From the NCBI GenBank assembly GCA_021730905.1, contig JAKFYK010000025.1, positions 81,377 through 145,376 of the forward strand: a DNA stretch of 64,000 bases, in the 5' to 3' direction. Position 1 is the stretch's first letter; each line of letters starts with the position of its first letter. Below the pieces are notes generated by a model. That model did not search any database and was not told where the DNA came from. It worked only from the letters and a program-made list of their open reading frames with translations. Origin of the DNA: Betaproteobacteria bacterium. GTDB taxonomy: Bacteria; Pseudomonadota; Gammaproteobacteria; Burkholderiales; SG8-41. Shown here one piece after another: positions 5,074 through 29,501 of this stretch. A program made the position numbers and the translations under genes.

Positions 5074-5307
5074 TTAGTGCAGTACCAGCGGTTGCCCCAT
5101 CAGCACATCGAAGTTGCCCAGAAACTCGTCGATGTTTTCGGGCGAAGCGTCTTCGGCGATTACGCCGTTGATGGACTGGGCGAACTTCTGCGCCACATCG
5201 CCGTGAAAGAAGGTGCTGCGGCGGCCGTGCTTGTCCACCAGCTCGAAACCGCGCTGGTCGGCATACTCGACCACGTAGTAATTGTCGCTGTTATAGACCA
5301 CGTTCAT
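5074..5307 (-). CDS. small DUF3567-like protein
   Basis: Start at MNVVYNSDNYYVVEY preceded by GGAGGTGG. This N-terminus is how I recall the DUF3567 family. Confidence 0.6.
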   Translation of the reverse strand: MNVVYNSDNYYVVEYADQRGFELVDKHGRRSTFFHGDVAQKFAQSINGVIAEDASPENIDEFLGNFDVLMGQPLVLH

Positions 5308-5472
5308 AAGCCACCTCCTTCTAACGTCAATTAAGCCCTCCAATTCCTGTAACGCACCAGCCAGTAATTCGGTTACGGCTCGCCGGCCAACCATCCTTAA
5401 TCACCACACGCTGCACAGGGATAATGGTCGGCGCAAGGCTATAAATCTGATTTCGGGGTGATAACCTAGTTT

Positions 5473-6369
5473 TCAAGTCCCGCGCCGCCATTGCGACACT
5501 GCAATCCCGAGCAAAATCAGTGCCAGAGCAACATAGGCGTGCAAACCCGGTGTTTCACCGAGCAGCGCCACGCCCAGAAACACCGCCACTGCCGGGCTCA
5601 TGTAGTTGACCAGCGACATGAAGGTTGGCCCGGCCGACGCGATCAGTTTGAAATACACCACTGTGGCAATGGCCGTCGGCCCCACGCCGAGCCACACAAT
5701 CGCCCAAAATGATGCAGCGCTGGCCTGGATCTTCCACGGCTGGTCCACCATCAGCGCCACCGGCAGCGCGATCACGCTGGCAATCAACAACATCGCTGTG
5801 GACGCCACCAGCACGTCGTCGCCACGCGCAAGGATGCGCGTCAGCACGCTGTTGCCGGCGTAGCACAACGCTCCAAACAAAATTGCCAGTTGCGACAATG
5901 TCGCCAGCGACTGACTGCTGATTTTATCGAGCGCCGACGGTCCCATCAACACGATGATGCCCGCGAAGCCGAGGATGAATCCGAGCACACGGTTGCGCGT
6001 CATGTGCTCGCCTTTGACGAAAAAATGCGCGAGCACCATGGTGGCCAGCGGCATCACCGCCATCAGAATGCCAGCGAGCGCGCTGTCGGTGCGTTGCTGG
6101 CCCCAGGTGATCGACGTGAACGGGATACAGTTACCGAGCAGCGCGAGGATGGTGTAGTAGCCCCACACCTTCCCGAACGGCGGCAGTCGCGCGCCGCGCA
6201 GATACACCACTACCAGCAGTATCAGCGCGCCGAGTATCAGCCGCGCCGCCACCAACGTGGAAGTCGGCACCGTCGCGACGCCGAGCTTGATGAACATGAA
6301 CGACGAGCCCCACATCGCCACCAGCGCGGCGAGCAGCAGCCAATCAAGCACGCTGTGGCGTGGCGTCAC
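5473..6369 (-). CDS. EamA/DMT-family transporter
   Basis: About 10 hydrophobic helices in two halves; WGSSFMFIKLGV and GPTFMSLVNYMSPAVAVFLG are typical EamA repeats. Confidence 0.85.
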   Translation of the reverse strand: MTPRHSVLDWLLLAALVAMWGSSFMFIKLGVATVPTSTLVAARLILGALILLVVVYLRGARLPPFGKVWGYYTILALLGNCIPFTSITWGQQRTDSALAGILMAVMPLATMVLAHFFVKGEHMTRNRVLGFILGFAGIIVLMGPSALDKISSQSLATLSQLAILFGALCYAGNSVLTRILARGDDVLVASTAMLLIASVIALPVALMVDQPWKIQASAASFWAIVWLGVGPTAIATVVYFKLIASAGPTFMSLVNYMSPAVAVFLGVALLGETPGLHAYVALALILLGIAVSQWRRGT

Positions 6370-6507: not shown

Positions 6508-7188
6508 ATGAGCCGAAATTATAGTAACTATTTGTTTTTATTGTATTTTTTGTATTCGCTCTCCTGGCAATCTGCTGTCGCGCAATCCACGGCACCGCGC
6601 TTTGCGCCGGTGCCGCCACCGGCGCCGGGACGCAGCGCAACGCCTGCAAAAGAAATCCCCGGTTCCGAACTGCTCGCTGAATTAAAGCGCGGCGGTTACA
6701 CCCTGTTTTTTCGCCACACTTCAACAGACTTCAGCCGCGACGACGTCAGATCGCGCAGCGACGATGATTGCGAAAACCAGCGCCCGCTTACCGACAAAGG
6801 CCGCGACGAAGCACGTCGCATCGGTCAGGACATGCGTGCGCTCGGCATTCCCATCGGCGAGGTGCTGGCCAGCCCGCGCTGCCGCACGGTTGAAGTCGCC
6901 AAGCTCGCCTTCGGCAATTACAAAATGGCGGAAGCAGCACGCGGCGGCGCAATCACGGCGCAGCCTGCGGAACGTTACAGCGGTCTGCGCGCGCTGTTCG
7001 ACAAAGGCCCCGGCGTGGGAAGAAATACCATCATCGTCAGTCACGGCAATCCGTTCTATGCAACCGCCGGCGCGCCCTATCTCGCGGAGGGCGAAGCCGC
7101 TGTTATCAAACCACTGGATAACGATTTCGAAGTGATTGCGCGCGTGCGCTGGGATGGATGGCAAACCTTGGCGGGTGTGAACCGGTGA
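6508..7188 (+). CDS. secreted histidine phosphatase-family protein
   Basis: GGYTLFFRHTSTDFSRDD (RH catalytic motif) and IIVSHGNPF. Start is either ATG 6508 or TTG 6532. The long upstream part of ORF 5890-7188 is antisense to the EamA gene and is ignored. Confidence 0.7.
   Translation: MSRNYSNYLFLLYFLYSLSWQSAVAQSTAPRFAPVPPPAPGRSATPAKEIPGSELLAELKRGGYTLFFRHTSTDFSRDDVRSRSDDDCENQRPLTDKGRDEARRIGQDMRALGIPIGEVLASPRCRTVEVAKLAFGNYKMAEAARGGAITAQPAERYSGLRALFDKGPGVGRNTIIVSHGNPFYATAGAPYLAEGEAAVIKPLDNDFEVIARVRWDGWQTLAGVNR
6525..6540 (-). repeat. 16-nt AT-rich box, copy 2 (TAAAAACAAATAGTTA on minus)
   Basis: Plus strand reads TAACTATTTGTTTTTA. It lies at the 5' end of the 6508-7188 gene, with a TTG at the same box position as the ATG in copy 41790-41805. 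Confidence 0.8.
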
Positions 7189-7218
7189 TACGCAACATCA
7201 TCCATCGTTCAAAACCGT

Positions 7219-8202
7219 CTATTCAACCGTCATGCCTGTGGCGGCAACCACCTTTGCCCATTTTTCCACTTCATTCTTTACAAATACCGTGAAGGCTTCA
7301 GTAGCCAGCGGCGACGGTTCCGCCCCCTGCGCATTGAGCCGGTCACGCACCTCGGGCAAGCGCATGATGCGCATTATTTCTCCGTTCAGTTTTTCCACCA
7401 CGGCGCGCGGCGTGCCCGTGGGCGCAAACACACCCAGCCAGTTGAGCATCTCGTAGCCCGGGACGCCGCTTTCCGCGATGGTCGGCAAATCCGGCAACGT
7501 TGCCGAGCGCTGGCCGCCGGTGACAGCCAGTCCGCGCAACCGTCCGCTCTTGGTGTGCGGGGAAACCGACGCCGCAGTGCCAAACGTCACCGGCACCTGC
7601 CCGGCAACCACGTCGACGATCATCGGTCCGCCGCCTTTGTACGGCACATGTATAAACTTAACCTGCGCCAGATGCTCAAACAGCGCCGCTGCAAGATGTG
7701 TCGAAGTGCCCGAACCAGCAGACGCATACATGATCTGCCCCGGACGCGCGCGGGAGAGGCCTATGAGTTCCTTCACGGAACGTGCGGGAAACGACGGATG
7801 CACGGCAAGTATGCTCGGCCCATCGGCCAGCCGCGTGACCGGCTGAAAATCGCGCAGCACGTTGTACGGCAGTTTGCGGTAAAGGCTCTGGTTAACGCCG
7901 TGCGTGCCGGCGCTGCCGACGACCAGCGTATGGCCGTCCGCTACGGCACGCGCCGCCAACTCTGTGCCAACGATGCCGCCGGCCCCGCCGCGATTGTCAA
8001 TCACCACCTGCTGTCCGAGGGCAGTACCCAGCGGGCCGGACATGACTCGCGCGCCAAGATCGACGAAACCGCCTGGGGGAAACGCCACGATCACGCGCAC
8101 GGGTTTTAGCGGATAGGTTTCTGCGGCCACGACATGTCCGGCGACAATAGCGCCTGACAATATCAGCGCATCTGCAATGATTCTCCTGATGTAAGTCTCC
8201 AC
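7219..8202 (-). CDS. Bug/TctC-family substrate-binding protein
   Basis: YPLKPVRVIVAFPPGGFVDLGAR, DNRGGAGGIVG and IHVPYKGGGPM. Confidence 0.9.
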   Translation of the reverse strand: METYIRRIIADALILSGAIVAGHVVAAETYPLKPVRVIVAFPPGGFVDLGARVMSGPLGTALGQQVVIDNRGGAGGIVGTELAARAVADGHTLVVGSAGTHGVNQSLYRKLPYNVLRDFQPVTRLADGPSILAVHPSFPARSVKELIGLSRARPGQIMYASAGSGTSTHLAAALFEHLAQVKFIHVPYKGGGPMIVDVVAGQVPVTFGTAASVSPHTKSGRLRGLAVTGGQRSATLPDLPTIAESGVPGYEMLNWLGVFAPTGTPRAVVEKLNGEIMRIMRLPEVRDRLNAQGAEPSPLATEAFTVFVKNEVEKWAKVVAATGMTVE

Positions 8203-25932: not shown

Positions 25933-26508
25933 TCAAATACCGAATCGTTCGCCGATTCCAAACAGTGTGGCGATTCCCAGGATTGCGAATATAACGGCAG
26001 CGATAGTATGAACCAGTCGAACAGGCATACGATGTGCGATGCGATCACCCAACAGAACCGCCGGAACATTGGCGATCATCATTCCCAAAGTGGTTCCGGC
26101 TACAACAGAAAAGAAGGCGTGATACTGTGCCGCCAAGGCAACCGTCGCGATCTGAGTCTTGTCGCCCATCTCAGCCAGGAAGAACGCGACCAGCGTCGTG
26201 CCAAAGACCCCGAATCGCGCGAGTTTGGCGTCTTTCTCGTCAAATTTGTCAGGAATCAGCATCCAGATTGCCATCCCGATAAATGAGGCACCTAAAATCC
26301 AGCGAAGTGTTTGTGGGCTCATGAGCGAAGTTATCCACGAACCCATGGCACCGGCAAAGGCGTGGTTCGCTAATGTGGCAACAAGAATGCCGATGACAAT
26401 CGGCAGCGATTTCTGAAACTTGGCTGCCAGAATGAAGGCGAGCAACTGGGTCTTGTCACCTATTTCCGCGAAAGCGACGATACCCGCAGAGATGAGGAAG
26501 GCTTCCAA
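25933..26508 (-). CDS. UPF0016 (GDT1/TMEM165-type) putative Mn2+/Ca2+ exporter
   Basis: Two copies of the E-x-G-D-K-T motif (AEIGDKTQLL and AEMGDKTQIA). Start set at TTG 26508 (MEAFLISAG...) after AAGGGA; the ORF extends to 26547. Confidence 0.85.
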   Translation of the reverse strand: MEAFLISAGIVAFAEIGDKTQLLAFILAAKFQKSLPIVIGILVATLANHAFAGAMGSWITSLMSPQTLRWILGASFIGMAIWMLIPDKFDEKDAKLARFGVFGTTLVAFFLAEMGDKTQIATVALAAQYHAFFSVVAGTTLGMMIANVPAVLLGDRIAHRMPVRLVHTIAAVIFAILGIATLFGIGERFGI

Positions 26509-26559
26509 TGCAATTTCCCTTGGCCGGAAGCAGACAAATGACCACATCGCTTCTCCGGC

Positions 26560-26685
26560 CGTCCGAAGGCGATATGGTCAAAGGTCTTGCCAAGTTCAGG
26601 AAACCGCTTGCGCCATGACCGGTGGGTCAAGTGTGTTGACGCAAACCCCTGCATCTTATGCAGGGCGACTACTCCCCAATGACGT
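26560..26685 (-). promoter_or_regulatory. yybP-ykoY-type Mn2+ riboswitch candidate
   Basis: The minus strand reads ...TTGGGGAGTAGTCGCC...GCGTCAACACACTTGAC...CTTGGCAAGACCTTTGACC... It contains the conserved GGGGAGUAG and GGCAAGACC blocks as I recall them, directly upstream of a UPF0016 gene, which is a classic association. Confidence 0.7.
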
Positions 26686-27677
26686 GGAAATTATAACAAA
26701 GATACCTCGTAAAGTGTTCGCTGCTTTATATGCGGGTTACCCACGGAGCGTGTTCCTTGCGGCGCAAATAGGGTTGCCCAATGGCAAGTACCCGTACAGC
26801 ATATCTCGTTGAAACTTAATTTATGGCGCAAAGTCAGATATGCGAATGCGAGGGAGGCCTTTTTTCCTCCTCGCCGATCCAGAATATTACAAAGGATCTC
26901 TTTGGACGTCACTGGACAACACCGGTTATCCGCTGGCTGAGTCAGCCCGTGTGATGCGCGTTAAGCATCAAAGGCTCGCAAGAGCGCCCAGAGCCGGGAA
27001 GTCCTTCTGTAATCCGGCCGGACCGTAGGCTAGGTCTGAAGATCGTAGTGGCAGCACCGTGATACTGCCCGCATGCCCTCTGTGCCGGCAGCGCAGTAAA
27101 CCGCTTCGCAGTGTGAAGCGGTAGTTTTAAATGGCGCAGTCTGCGCCAGTGGCCAACGATAGCATTTCATCAACGGCTGCTGCGCCAGGGTTCTTCGTGG
27201 TTCTGCGCCAGCCCTCTGGGCCAATGCGCGTCGTGACTAGCCAGTGCCAACTGCTAGTAACGACGCGCACAATCTCTGCGTCGTCAGGCACTTAGGCAGT
27301 AGTTCTGAAAGTGACGACCATCAGTGACGGGCCGTTCTGGCCCGTTAAATCGTAGGGAACCGTGCAATGCGGTTCGTCAATTGCCCGCCTACCGGGTGTC
27401 TAGTACAGCGCTTCCCTGGCGCAACCCGTGAGCCCGGGTACCAGCTCAAACCGATGCGTCTTCACGAAGGCACTATCGGCGCCAATGCCACGTATCGGGC
27501 AGGCCAGTCGTAAACACAACGATACATACCGGGAGTGGTGTCCCGCGGTCCCTCGTAGCGCCCCCCATGCTTAGGCATGAAGGCCGGACAGAAACACTTA
27601 CCTTAAACGCATTACACACCAAGAAGAACCGCAGGACAAGACAGACATCCCCTCGCCTGAATAATTGCGTCGAGGCG

Positions 27678-27765
27678 ACTGCGCTCGTACTGCAGTCCGA
27701 CTGCATTCGTACTGCATTCCGGATGCGCCTGGACTGCAATCCGACTGCGTTCGTACGGCAGGCGA
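27678..27765 (+). repeat. eight tandem 11-bp phased repeats (four 22-bp units)
   Basis: ACTGCGCTCGT ACTGCAGTCCG ACTGCATTCGT ACTGCATTCCG GATGCGCCTGG ACTGCAATCCG ACTGCGTTCGT ACGGCAGGCGA. Confidence 0.85.
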
Positions 27766-27796
27766 TATCGGCAGTGCGAGTTCAAATTCTCAGTTG

Positions 27797-27832
27797 GCAG
27801 GAATACCTCCATCTTGATGGAGGTATTCCTGC
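27797..27832. repeat. perfect 36-nt palindrome (17-bp arms, TT centre)
   Basis: GCAGGAATACCTCCATC-TT-GATGGAGGTATTCCTGC. Confidence 0.9.
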
Positions 27833-27890
27833 TCTCTTGATGGTGGGATTCCCTCCGACTGGGCACGCGCTGTGTTCTGACGCCGCATCA

Positions 27891-28575
27891 CCACAAAAAA
27901 TTTGCCTTTTCCCGGTCAACCCCCCCTGTTTTTGGGGGGAATACAGCACTATTTTTTTATAGACACGCGGCAGAATAGATCATTCATAACTCTTGATCTG
28001 TAGATGTCTATGAGCAAGCTGATCTGCGAGCCACGCCGCTTGTGCCTTTCGACCCGCGCACAAAGGATTCCGTTCGGCGCATGGGCGCGTTCTGCGCGCC
28101 ACAGTACCACTGTCTCGAAAACGCAAAAAAGCCGCTTCTACCAAAAAAATAAATCCTTTTCCGGTCCATCCCCCCTCACTTTTGTGGGGGTGGTTTGAAC
28201 AAGGCTCTGTTGACTCTCGGCACAATTGATCTACGCGAATTTCTGAATTGAGAAAGCCCATGACAAACCTGAACTACAAACTTTCCCTTGTGCGCCCTCC
28301 TGCCCGCGTACTTGCGAGTACGCCCGGATTGACTGCGCGAGAGACGCACACTGCGGCGCAGCCCGATGGCGCCACGCATCAACCGGATTTCGAGACCGCA
28401 GCAGTCCGCCATCAGGCCTGCCCAGAGCTGGCACAGGCCACATGGGGGCATATTTCCTCCAACCCCCCCCTATTTTTGTGAGGGTTACAACCATTTTCTT
28501 TTATTGACACACGCGACAATCGATTCACGTGAAACCCTGATTTCTTAGCCCATGAAAGACCTGAACTACGAACTG
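27891..28575 (+). repeat. triplicated module: A-run, C-run/G-run hairpin, TTGAC-box, AATnGAT dyad and start codon
   Basis: Copies at ~27891-28020, ~28141-28280 and ~28441-28575. Hairpins: CCCCCCCTGTTTTTGGGGGG, CCCCCCTCACTTTTGTGGGGG, CCCCCCCCTATTTTTGTGAGGG. Boxes: ATAGACACGCGGCAGAATAGATCATTC, TTGACTCTCGGCACAATTGATCTAC, TTGACACACGCGACAATCGATTCAC. Copies 2 and 3 share AGCCCATGA(C/A)A(A/G)ACCTGAACTAC(A/G)AAC. Confidence 0.65.
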
Positions 28576-29418
28576 AAGAAACTGTGCCAGCGCAACCGCG
28601 ACGGCAGCTACGCCACCCAGCATGCGCGCGAGCGCATCCTGACCCTGGTCGCCAACCAGCTGCATGAGATGGGATTTAAAGACATGAAGGCAACCAGCCT
28701 AAAACCCAAGCATGTGACCGCGCTGGTAGAACGCTGGAAGACGGAATCCCTGGCCGTGGGTACGATCAAGGTGCGTATGTCGGTGCTGCGCTGGTGGGCC
28801 GATAAAATACAAAAACAAAACGTCATCGCGCGTGACAACGAGCACTACGGCATTCCCAATCGGCAGAATGTCACCAATGTCAGCCGCGCTCGGATTCTGA
28901 CGGCTGAAGATCTGACCAAGGTCACCGATCCCTATACGCGACTATCGCTGAAGTTGCAGGCCGCCTTCGGGCTGCGCCGTGAGGAGTCGATCAAGATCCG
29001 GCCGGAATGGGCTGACCGAGGCGATTTGCTTGCCCTCCGGGACACCTGGACCAAGGGCGGACGGGAGCGGGACATCCCGATCCGCAATGAACAGCAACGG
29101 ATCGTATTGGAAGAAGCCAAACAACTGGCCGGCAAAGGCAGTCTGATTCCGCGAGAGATGAATTACAAGCAGCAAATGGAACGCTTCAAGGCGCAGTGTC
29201 AGGACGCTGGCATTCGGCACGTACATGGACACCGTCATCAGTACGCCCAAGATCGCTATCAGGAGCTAACAGGCTGGCTCTCACCGGCGCAAGGCGGGCC
29301 GACTTTCAGGCAACTGACGCCTGAGCAGAAAATCCTGGATCACAACGCGCGGCTCACCATTAGCATTGAACTCGGGCATGAACGCCTGAGCGTGGTGGCA
29401 GTTTACTGTGGCCGATGA
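28552..29418 (+). CDS. integrase-domain protein (plasmid/ICE-type 'Integrase_1'-like tyrosine recombinase)
   Basis: MKDLNYELKKLCQRNRDGSYATQHARERIL...LKPKHVTALVERW...GLRREESIKIRP...HGHRHQYAQDRY. The R...HxxR...Y-type catalytic pattern is recognised from memory. Confidence 0.7.
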   Translation: MKDLNYELKKLCQRNRDGSYATQHARERILTLVANQLHEMGFKDMKATSLKPKHVTALVERWKTESLAVGTIKVRMSVLRWWADKIQKQNVIARDNEHYGIPNRQNVTNVSRARILTAEDLTKVTDPYTRLSLKLQAAFGLRREESIKIRPEWADRGDLLALRDTWTKGGRERDIPIRNEQQRIVLEEAKQLAGKGSLIPREMNYKQQMERFKAQCQDAGIRHVHGHRHQYAQDRYQELTGWLSPAQGGPTFRQLTPEQKILDHNARLTISIELGHERLSVVAVYCGR

Positions 29419-29501
29419 CAGGACGCCGATGAAAACAAATCCCAAAAGCTGTAAACCCCCTTTACTCAAATTTTTTCTTCACAACTAAAGGAAGTATACG
29501 T

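Follow-up and report, generated by a model that had tools for sequence, protein, structure and literature searches.

What can a stretch of bacterial DNA do that holds no gene and is packed with hairpins? The question is raised by a tract of about 1 kb (positions 26700-27677) in a 64,000-nucleotide piece of contig JAKFYK010000025.1 of a Betaproteobacteria bacterium (GCA_021730905.1). We call this piece the window, and all positions refer to it unless a contig or locus is named. The original prediction had proposed a large structured RNA or a region active as single-stranded DNA (ssDNA). Our analysis leads us to favour, with moderate confidence, a reading in which the conserved part of the tract is the leader of a mobilisation module with a MOB_M relaxase, most likely a transfer origin (oriT) together with a folded RNA. 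The locus would then be the Burkholderiales counterpart of the oriT, sgm-sRNA and mpsA gene of Salmonella genomic island 1 (SGI1). The direction of the original prediction was right in that the element is conserved, covarying, strand-polarised, non-coding and tied to a gene, and in that its SGI1 analogue holds both an oriT and a 650-700 nt RNA.

The non-coding tract and its downstream gene

Window positions 26548-28551 contain no long open reading frame (ORF), and no ORF of more than 64 amino acids lies wholly within 26913-27566. We aligned the non-coding tract of roughly 700 bases (26928-27625) across 47 homologous tracts. Column variability lacked a 3-base period (phase means 0.211, 0.202 and 0.229), and indel lengths that are multiples of three were not enriched (668, 331 and 325 for lengths of 1, 2 and 0 modulo 3). 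The adjacent gene served as coding control, with 8, 5 and 44 differences by codon position between the copies in the window genome. The claim that no frame gives a credible protein was thus confirmed, and the gene remnants named beforehand as a possible refutation did not appear in the 47-tract alignment, which is non-coding.

The tract had also been described as dense in hairpins. Every hairpin listed at the time was present, with coordinates within 1-2 nt, and the minimum free energy of 26924-27640 on the plus strand was -294 kcal/mol, compared with -261.6 +/- 7.1 in dinucleotide shuffles (z -4.6); the z value for the minus strand against such shuffles was -2.6. Hairpins at 26973-26985, 27225-27269, 27326-27346, 27358-27374 and 27566-27579 were conserved and showed compensatory changes in relatives.

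The search for homologues and covariation proposed with the original prediction yielded more than 60 homologous loci in Burkholderiales and relatives, in which the tract is kept at 66-86% identity, and covariation in two of its modules, A and C (matched by 0 of 500 shuffles each). Sixteen of 61 related genomes contain the tract, at 69-86% nucleotide identity and with a patchy distribution. A protein-based scan with one genome per species recovered 80 loci with the 288-amino-acid (288-aa) gene that follows the tract (43-90% identity), mostly in Burkholderiales and Rhodocyclales-type metagenome-assembled genomes (MAGs), together with some short contigs binned to unrelated phyla. Nearly all gene-bearing loci with enough upstream DNA have the tract on the same strand as the gene, and in the homologous loci it starts with GCTG(A/T)GTCAGCCCG, 700-930 nt before the start codon. 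The corresponding upstream region of annotated plasmid homologues is likewise gene-free; a BLASTN search of plasmids with the tract itself gave no matches. Rfam searches of the window and 13 related loci, at the gathering threshold and at E <= 10, returned only an Mn riboswitch and tRNAs and left the tract unmatched, in line with the earlier remark that hallmarks of known RNAs were not seen.

Within the window genome (G000; 182 contigs, 92% complete), where the window copy lies on contig C3, a second copy of 26889-29465 was found on contig C20 (90% identical). Partial copies match 26789-27025 (C5) and ~27203-27343 (C48 and C33).

The gene downstream of the tract (28552-29418, plus strand) encodes a 288-aa protein with matches to PF12834 (3.7e-17) and PF12835 (1e-11; 45.4 bits versus a cut-off of 23 bits). 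It combines an N-terminal SAM-like domain of the core-binding type with a catalytic domain of the tyrosine-recombinase fold, and residues R142, K168, H225, R228, H276 and Y285 do not vary among 70 homologues. PF12835 is the signature for MpsA-like 'INT_DTR_like' relaxases, including MpsA of SGI1 (PMC10484663). MOB_M relaxases are reported to be the commonest relaxase class in chromosomes, to abound in chromosomal islands and to be annotated mostly as integrases; in 96% of cases a true integrase is encoded nearby, and they occur in integrative and conjugative elements (ICEs) with a mating pore of the MPF_G type or in relaxase-only islands (bioRxiv 10.64898/2026.01.13.699239). From domains and residues, we regard the gene product as a candidate relaxase of the MpsA/MOB_M type. 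The earlier label 'integrase-like gene' had missed the relaxase candidate. A sequence search of the PDB with the 288-aa protein gave a weak alignment to the box I region of IntI4 and no informative relatives, and the exact protein sequence has no record in public assemblies.

The neighbourhoods of the homologues show an association with conjugation or mobilisation. A gene for a type IV coupling protein (T4CP) lies directly 3' of the homologue in Pleionea (PF02534, 1.6e-42) and Acinetobacter plasmids. In ICE-like relatives, the gene adjoins an ICE gene of the PFL_4669 family, and DUF932 and radC genes are oriented towards it.

Some loci carry paired copies. Two relaxase-like genes (5270-6136 and 6974-7840 of locus L041, G015:C88) stand tail to tail on opposite strands, ~840 bp apart, and a Thauera sinica contig (L074/L086) has two copies ~56 kb apart, which suggests tandem or nested elements. 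The same module, at 66-72% protein identity, was also seen on short contigs (L047, L048, L052, L063, L064, L069, L072, L087, L091, L098 and L107) binned to Lysobacterales, Cyanobacteria-like, Planctomycetota, Bdellovibrio-like, Acidobacteriota, Gemmatimonas, Actinomycetes, Anaerolineales, Binatia and Verrucomicrobia MAGs; the bins of unrelated phyla are probably due to mis-binning of a multi-copy mobile element. Small circular plasmids were rejected, as 0 of 20 short contigs had a terminal overlap. A Tn3-like transposon with terminal inverted repeats was rejected as well: the inverted blocks of 40-115 nt turned out to be module A, in copies that stand at the head of convergent gene sets, a transposase between them is absent, and the right-hand copy is absent from the window.

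Architecture of the leader

Module A (~115 nt, 26928-27045, plus strand) is a pseudoknotted element. Its helices P1 (GGCUG-AGU-CAGCC) and P2 (GAUGC...GCAUC) are both short and invariant, and P3 is a variable hairpin with a covarying stem and with GCAA (in the window), GAAA, UUCG and other loops. P4 (GCCGG/CCGGC) has a loop (AUCUCC) that pairs with a downstream segment of the GGAGAU type to form the pseudoknot, within which lies P5, a GNRA-capped hairpin with GCAA, GAAA or GCGA loops. In an alignment of 39 sequences (A1), 96.6% of the cells were paired, versus at most 41% with the partners slid, and 9 pairs were changed on both sides, which 0 of 500 shuffles matched. A covariance model of module A (R1) detected three copies in the window genome (C3, C20 and C5); outside the order, the module is rare and was found in 2 of 400 genomes of the class.

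Module A also occurs away from the relaxase gene. It stands alone upstream of a PF00589 integrase gene beside a tRNA (G000:C5:7465-7577; L042), and in ICE-like relatives it is found inverted before radC-DUF932 operons (L057 7564-7657; L035 615-731), in copies without the variable hairpin. Module A behaves as a portable, shared leader of transfer-related genes.

Module B (27196-27350, plus strand) consists of an inverted repeat, direct repeats and a hairpin. The 17-bp inverted repeat (27225-27241 / 27253-27269) is 94% complementary. Its arms, with the near-invariant motif GTCGTSACTA, are invariant across 34 relatives while the loop is variable, and in most relatives they read GCGTCGTCACTAC / GTAGTGACGACGC. 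Downstream of the inverted repeat follow repeats of the GTGACGAC type (27275-27282, 27310-27318 and 27324-27331) and a covarying hairpin at 27326-27346. The arm motif, as GTC(G/A)T(C/G)ACTA, recurs in the 660-1200 bp gene-free leaders of plasmid homologues from Pleionea, Francisella, Acinetobacter and Agrobacterium, whose proteins are 46-54% identical and whose arms are 4 to ~80 nt apart. Two orphan copies of module B, with the inverted repeat and GTGACG repeats, were found in the window genome without a PF12835 gene: one (G000:C48:27772-27907) in an island with a P4-type integrase, the other (G000:C33:36606-36744) near a DUF3631 gene. Because of its sequence-specific, family-wide conservation and these orphan copies, module B is the best oriT candidate, as far as we can infer from the sequence. 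Islands that hitch a ride with an oriT only (iOriTs) have been described in a 2026 preprint (bioRxiv 10.64898/2026.01.13.699239); the orphan copies follow the same pattern and are candidates for such hitcher islands.

Six middle hairpins (27358-27374, 27383-27396, 27408-27422, 27428-27447, 27451-27479 and 27487-27501) occupy 27351-27520 of the plus strand, with 16 of 53 pairs changed on both sides (RNAalifold consensus, alignment A3). They are followed by module C (27521-27625, plus strand; alignment A2, 36 sequences). First comes an invariant hairpin, CGGGA-GUGGUG-UCCCG (27530-27545). A closing helix, GUCC/GGAC (27548-27551 / 27586-27589), then encloses a two-part stem with strong covariation (27558-27585), and positions 27586-27602 form an invariant box, GGACAGAAACACTTACC. 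Paired cells made up 94.4% of alignment A2 (versus at most 53% with the partners slid), and changes on both sides affected 9 pairs and 55 cells, again matched by 0 of 500 shuffles. The homologues from Pleionea, Francisella, Acinetobacter and Agrobacterium also have a box of this AACACTTACC type, which precedes their start codons by 55-95 nt.

The remaining parts of the region are less widely shared, and of the ~1 kb originally proposed the conserved unit stood whereas ~380 of the 978 nt are not conserved. Positions 26700-26788 adjoin the Mn riboswitch and lie outside the conserved unit. An upstream block of ~140 nt (26789-26927, plus strand) is common only to the closest relatives and the C5 copy; BLAST matches begin at 26789-26800 in three related genomes (G020, G028 and G005) and in C5, and a six-copy alignment revealed conserved stretches, of which TTGAAACTT, TGGCGCAAAGTCAA and CACTGGACA are invariant. 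This block may hold the promoter of the leader; a promoter scan of it found no consensus sigma-70 promoter. Between modules A and B, a variable spacer (27046-27195, plus strand) has low conservation (0.26-0.41) and lineage-specific hairpins at 27100-27122, which a terminator scan called terminator-like, and 27133-27147. The spacer hairpins ACCGCTTC and GGCGCA noted before are therefore real features of the window that are not conserved across relatives.

The ~930 bp between module C and the gene (27626-28551, plus strand) are an insert that most relatives lack; besides the window, it is present only on C20 and in genome G020. Repeat analysis showed that it contains iterons of 11 bp (27678-27765), a palindrome of 36 nt (27797-27832) and, up to 28551, a triplicated promoter/5'-end module. 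Since the gene starts ~25-90 nt past the equivalent of 27620 in most relatives, iterons, palindrome and triplicated module are a lineage-specific addition outside the conserved unit. The earlier view that iterons and palindrome form one system with the tract was therefore not upheld, and the CCTCG...CGAGG pair, although present, falls in this insert.

Divergence between the C3 and C20 copies was compared with that at third codon positions of the gene (15.2%) as neutral benchmark. Module B differed by 3.2%, module C by 4.8%, the middle hairpins by 7.6%, module A by 10.7% and the spacer by 18.4%. The spacer (81.6% identity, near the 84.8% at third codon positions) is thus near-neutral in its divergence, and the insert (87.7% identity) is also near the benchmark. 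Modules B and C are, judging from these two copies, under purifying selection in the window genome despite the insert that separates them from the gene.

We then asked which strand folds by counting minority variants at Watson-Crick pairs in three curated alignments, with the mirror fold as control. The plus-strand fold had 71 G-U versus 25 A-C variants, the minus-strand mirror fold 29 versus 39. This excess of G-U on the plus strand only identifies the plus strand, which is the sense strand of the gene, as the folding strand. A first test on the RNAalifold structure of the whole tract had given no bias (151 G-U versus 130 A-C); it was misleading because that structure includes many unsupported long-range pairs.

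A proposed mobilisation leader and its alternatives

The layout of the locus is that of the mobilisation region of SGI1 (mobSGI1). There, a promoter ~730 bp upstream of mpsA drives an RNA of 650-700 nt towards mpsA, and a 125-bp oriT with inverted repeats is located ~290-410 bp upstream of mpsA (PMC6414798, PMC9299015). The last ~280 nt of the RNA, next to mpsA, are the sgm-sRNA core, which is essential for transfer by an unexplained mechanism, and the SGI1 region equivalent to our leader acts as an RNA supplied in trans (PMC9299015). In both systems the relaxase, here a candidate, has the tyrosine-recombinase fold and the PF12835 signature, and ~700 nt devoid of a functional ORF precede its gene on the same strand. 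A few hundred bp separate the gene from upstream inverted repeats (in SGI1 the oriT; here ~350-400 nt before the leader end), a conserved structured part directly precedes the gene (the sgm-sRNA core in SGI1; module C here), and the whole is part of a small non-autonomous island with its own integrase. Given the same length, orientation and internal order, we read the tract as a mobilisation leader that belongs to a MOB_M relaxase. We take modules A and C as structured RNA of the plus strand because of their covarying stems, GNRA/UUCG loops and the wobble bias of that strand.

The two systems also differ. The 288-aa protein has its own core-binding-type domain and no mpsB-like gene after it, whereas MpsA is without this domain and needs MpsB. 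Reuse before other genes, as seen for module A, has not been reported in SGI1. The hosts here are Burkholderiales and relatives, with ICE-borne relatives that carry an MPF_G-family gene, whereas SGI1 uses IncA/C helper plasmids. The comparison is one of layout, as published for SGI1 and as read from the sequence for the module described here.

Likewise, MobK with the oriT of pIGRK and TcpM with the oriT of pCW3 combine a relaxase of the tyrosine-recombinase fold and a catalytic tyrosine with an oriT that occupies intergenic DNA directly 5' of the gene and has many inverted and direct repeats (PMC8152469). Unlike the 288-aa protein, MobK and TcpM are without core-binding domains, and their oriT regions are 150-456 bp long, with no RNA described (PMC8152469). 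MpsA, MobK and TcpM have no significant sequence similarity to one another, so the relatedness of the 288-aa protein is one of fold and Pfam family only.

The leader also calls to mind orphan structured RNA motifs of another kind. In mobile elements of proteobacteria, the radC, STAXI and EFASI RNA motifs of Rfam are found close to genes for integrases, radC and antirestriction. They share with our leader the neighbourhood of integrase-like genes, radC and mobile-element genes, a covarying structure of unknown function and the question of RNA versus ssDNA, which has been raised for them too. However, the models of radC (RF01754), STAXI and EFASI matched neither the window nor a relative even at an E-value of 10, a criterion that places module A and the remainder of the tract outside these families.

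In the mechanism that we propose, the inverted repeat of module B and the GTGACGAC repeats would be the sites at which the 288-aa enzyme assembles and nicks, and module B would be the oriT through which a helper conjugation system moves a non-autonomous island. Transcription of the leader, in the same sense as the gene, would produce a long structured RNA. Module A at the 5' end would act as a portable regulatory or processing element common to radC-DUF932 and island integrase genes, and module C at the 3' end would match the sgm-sRNA core in position. The oriT function, the nick position, transcription and the role of the RNA are all inferred.

Several observations weigh against this interpretation. 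Scans of the tract ends found neither a conserved sigma-70-like promoter nor a terminator, and the 930-bp insert separates leader and gene in the window. The 92%-complete window genome has two PF12835 genes and no PF02534 T4CP, so that no helper is visible and the islands would need one from outside. Since G-T wobbles and stable loops also occur in folded ssDNA, the strand bias is no proof of RNA. Finally, with its own N-terminal domain and full catalytic set, unlike MpsA, the 288-aa protein could be a true recombinase.

The last two points lead to the alternatives. It is possible, though we think it rather unlikely, that the folded elements act as ssDNA: after transfer, the plus strand would form a single-strand initiation site or promoter (ssi/sso, or Frpo of plasmid F) that primes complementary-strand synthesis or early transcription in the recipient, with module B still the oriT. 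Covariation and a wobble bias of one strand suit a folded DNA strand equally well, the module is part of a conjugative transfer unit, and the radC and DUF932 genes preceded by module A are typical of plasmid leading regions. However, the two inverted copies of module A that head convergent gene sets in ICE-like loci cannot both be active on one transferred strand. Furthermore, no conserved stem forms a -35/-10 pair, and the SGI1 region works in trans as RNA (PMC9299015).

Improbable in our view is a true site-specific recombinase for resolution, inversion or integration, with the tract as its recombination site, the inverted repeat as core and the GTGACGAC repeats as arm sites. The spacing of the arms misfits a fixed crossover region of 6-8 bp, although the sequence-conserved arms themselves would suit such an enzyme, as would the complete invariant R-K-H-R-H-Y set and the SAM-like domain. 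Homologues on small plasmids typed non-mobilisable and the opposite orientation of the window-genome copies relative to a GDT1-family gene (see below) point the same way. But T4CP genes are directly coupled to the gene, the islands have integrases of their own already, and covarying structure with a strand bias, which extends over ~450 nt beyond the repeat, would be unexpected for a duplex recombination site.

We give even less credence to a leader that is merely a long 5' untranslated region, which would regulate the gene by attenuation, stability or translation control and have neither oriT nor trans-acting RNA. Orphan module B copies lack a downstream gene of the PF12835 family, and the sequence-invariant repeat arms point to recognition by a protein. 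In addition, modules B and C are 95-97% identical between the window and C20 copies (versus 85% at third positions) even though the 930-bp insert, with promoter-like modules of its own, separates them from the gene. What such a region would explain is the same strand and fixed position of the leader, the fact that relatives have nothing promoter-like from module C to the start codon, and the service of module A as leader of other genes. A decayed protein-coding gene, for which only short chance ORFs speak, is refuted as far as sequence analysis goes by the missing codon periodicity and in-frame indel excess in the 47 homologues, by conservation that tracks stems and loops, and by the gene-free region in annotated plasmid homologues.

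Genomic surroundings and possible meaning for MOB_M relaxases

The 12-kb tRNA-Leu island that contains the window module also encodes a P4-type integrase and AlpA. On its left, the tract is flanked by a GDT1-family gene (25933-26547, minus strand), which is preceded by the Mn riboswitch (RF00080; 26512-26689, minus strand; 107 bits in Rfam). This riboswitch-GDT1 unit (window 25933-26689; G000:C20:5517-6277; 81% identical) adjoins both copies of the relaxase module in opposite relative orientation: the leader start faces the riboswitch in the window and, on C20, the 3' end of the GDT1 gene, ~550 bp off. The opposite orientations point to an inversion or reshuffling of a shared ancestral island segment. 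A large serine recombinase with Resolvase, Recombinase and Zn-ribbon domains (G000:C20:89-1708) is encoded ~700 bp beyond the C20 relaxase gene and may be the integrase of the C20 island.

The mobilisation-leader reading would add to a small set, since oriTs and cofactors of MOB_M relaxases are known from only three systems, and a need for RNA only from SGI1. The locus offers a second, unrelated-looking leader family that is environmentally widespread and has clear covariation. Its GTCGTSACTA inverted-repeat motif and the invariant AACACTTACC box are concrete candidates for binding and nick sites, its portable, 115-nt pseudoknotted module A is absent from Rfam, and its orphan module B copies may be signs of islands that lack a relaxase and can still be mobilised.

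More speculatively, a large modular RNA might be the working partner of MOB_M relaxases across the ICEs and islands of Burkholderiales. Module C, with the invariant AACACUUACC, would then be the RNA part of the relaxosome, and module A a shared pseudoknotted riboregulator that ties relaxase, integrase and radC/DUF932 genes into one transfer regulon. If this tentative extension is true, RNA-assisted processing of conjugative DNA would be general to the commonest chromosomal relaxase class and not an oddity of SGI1.

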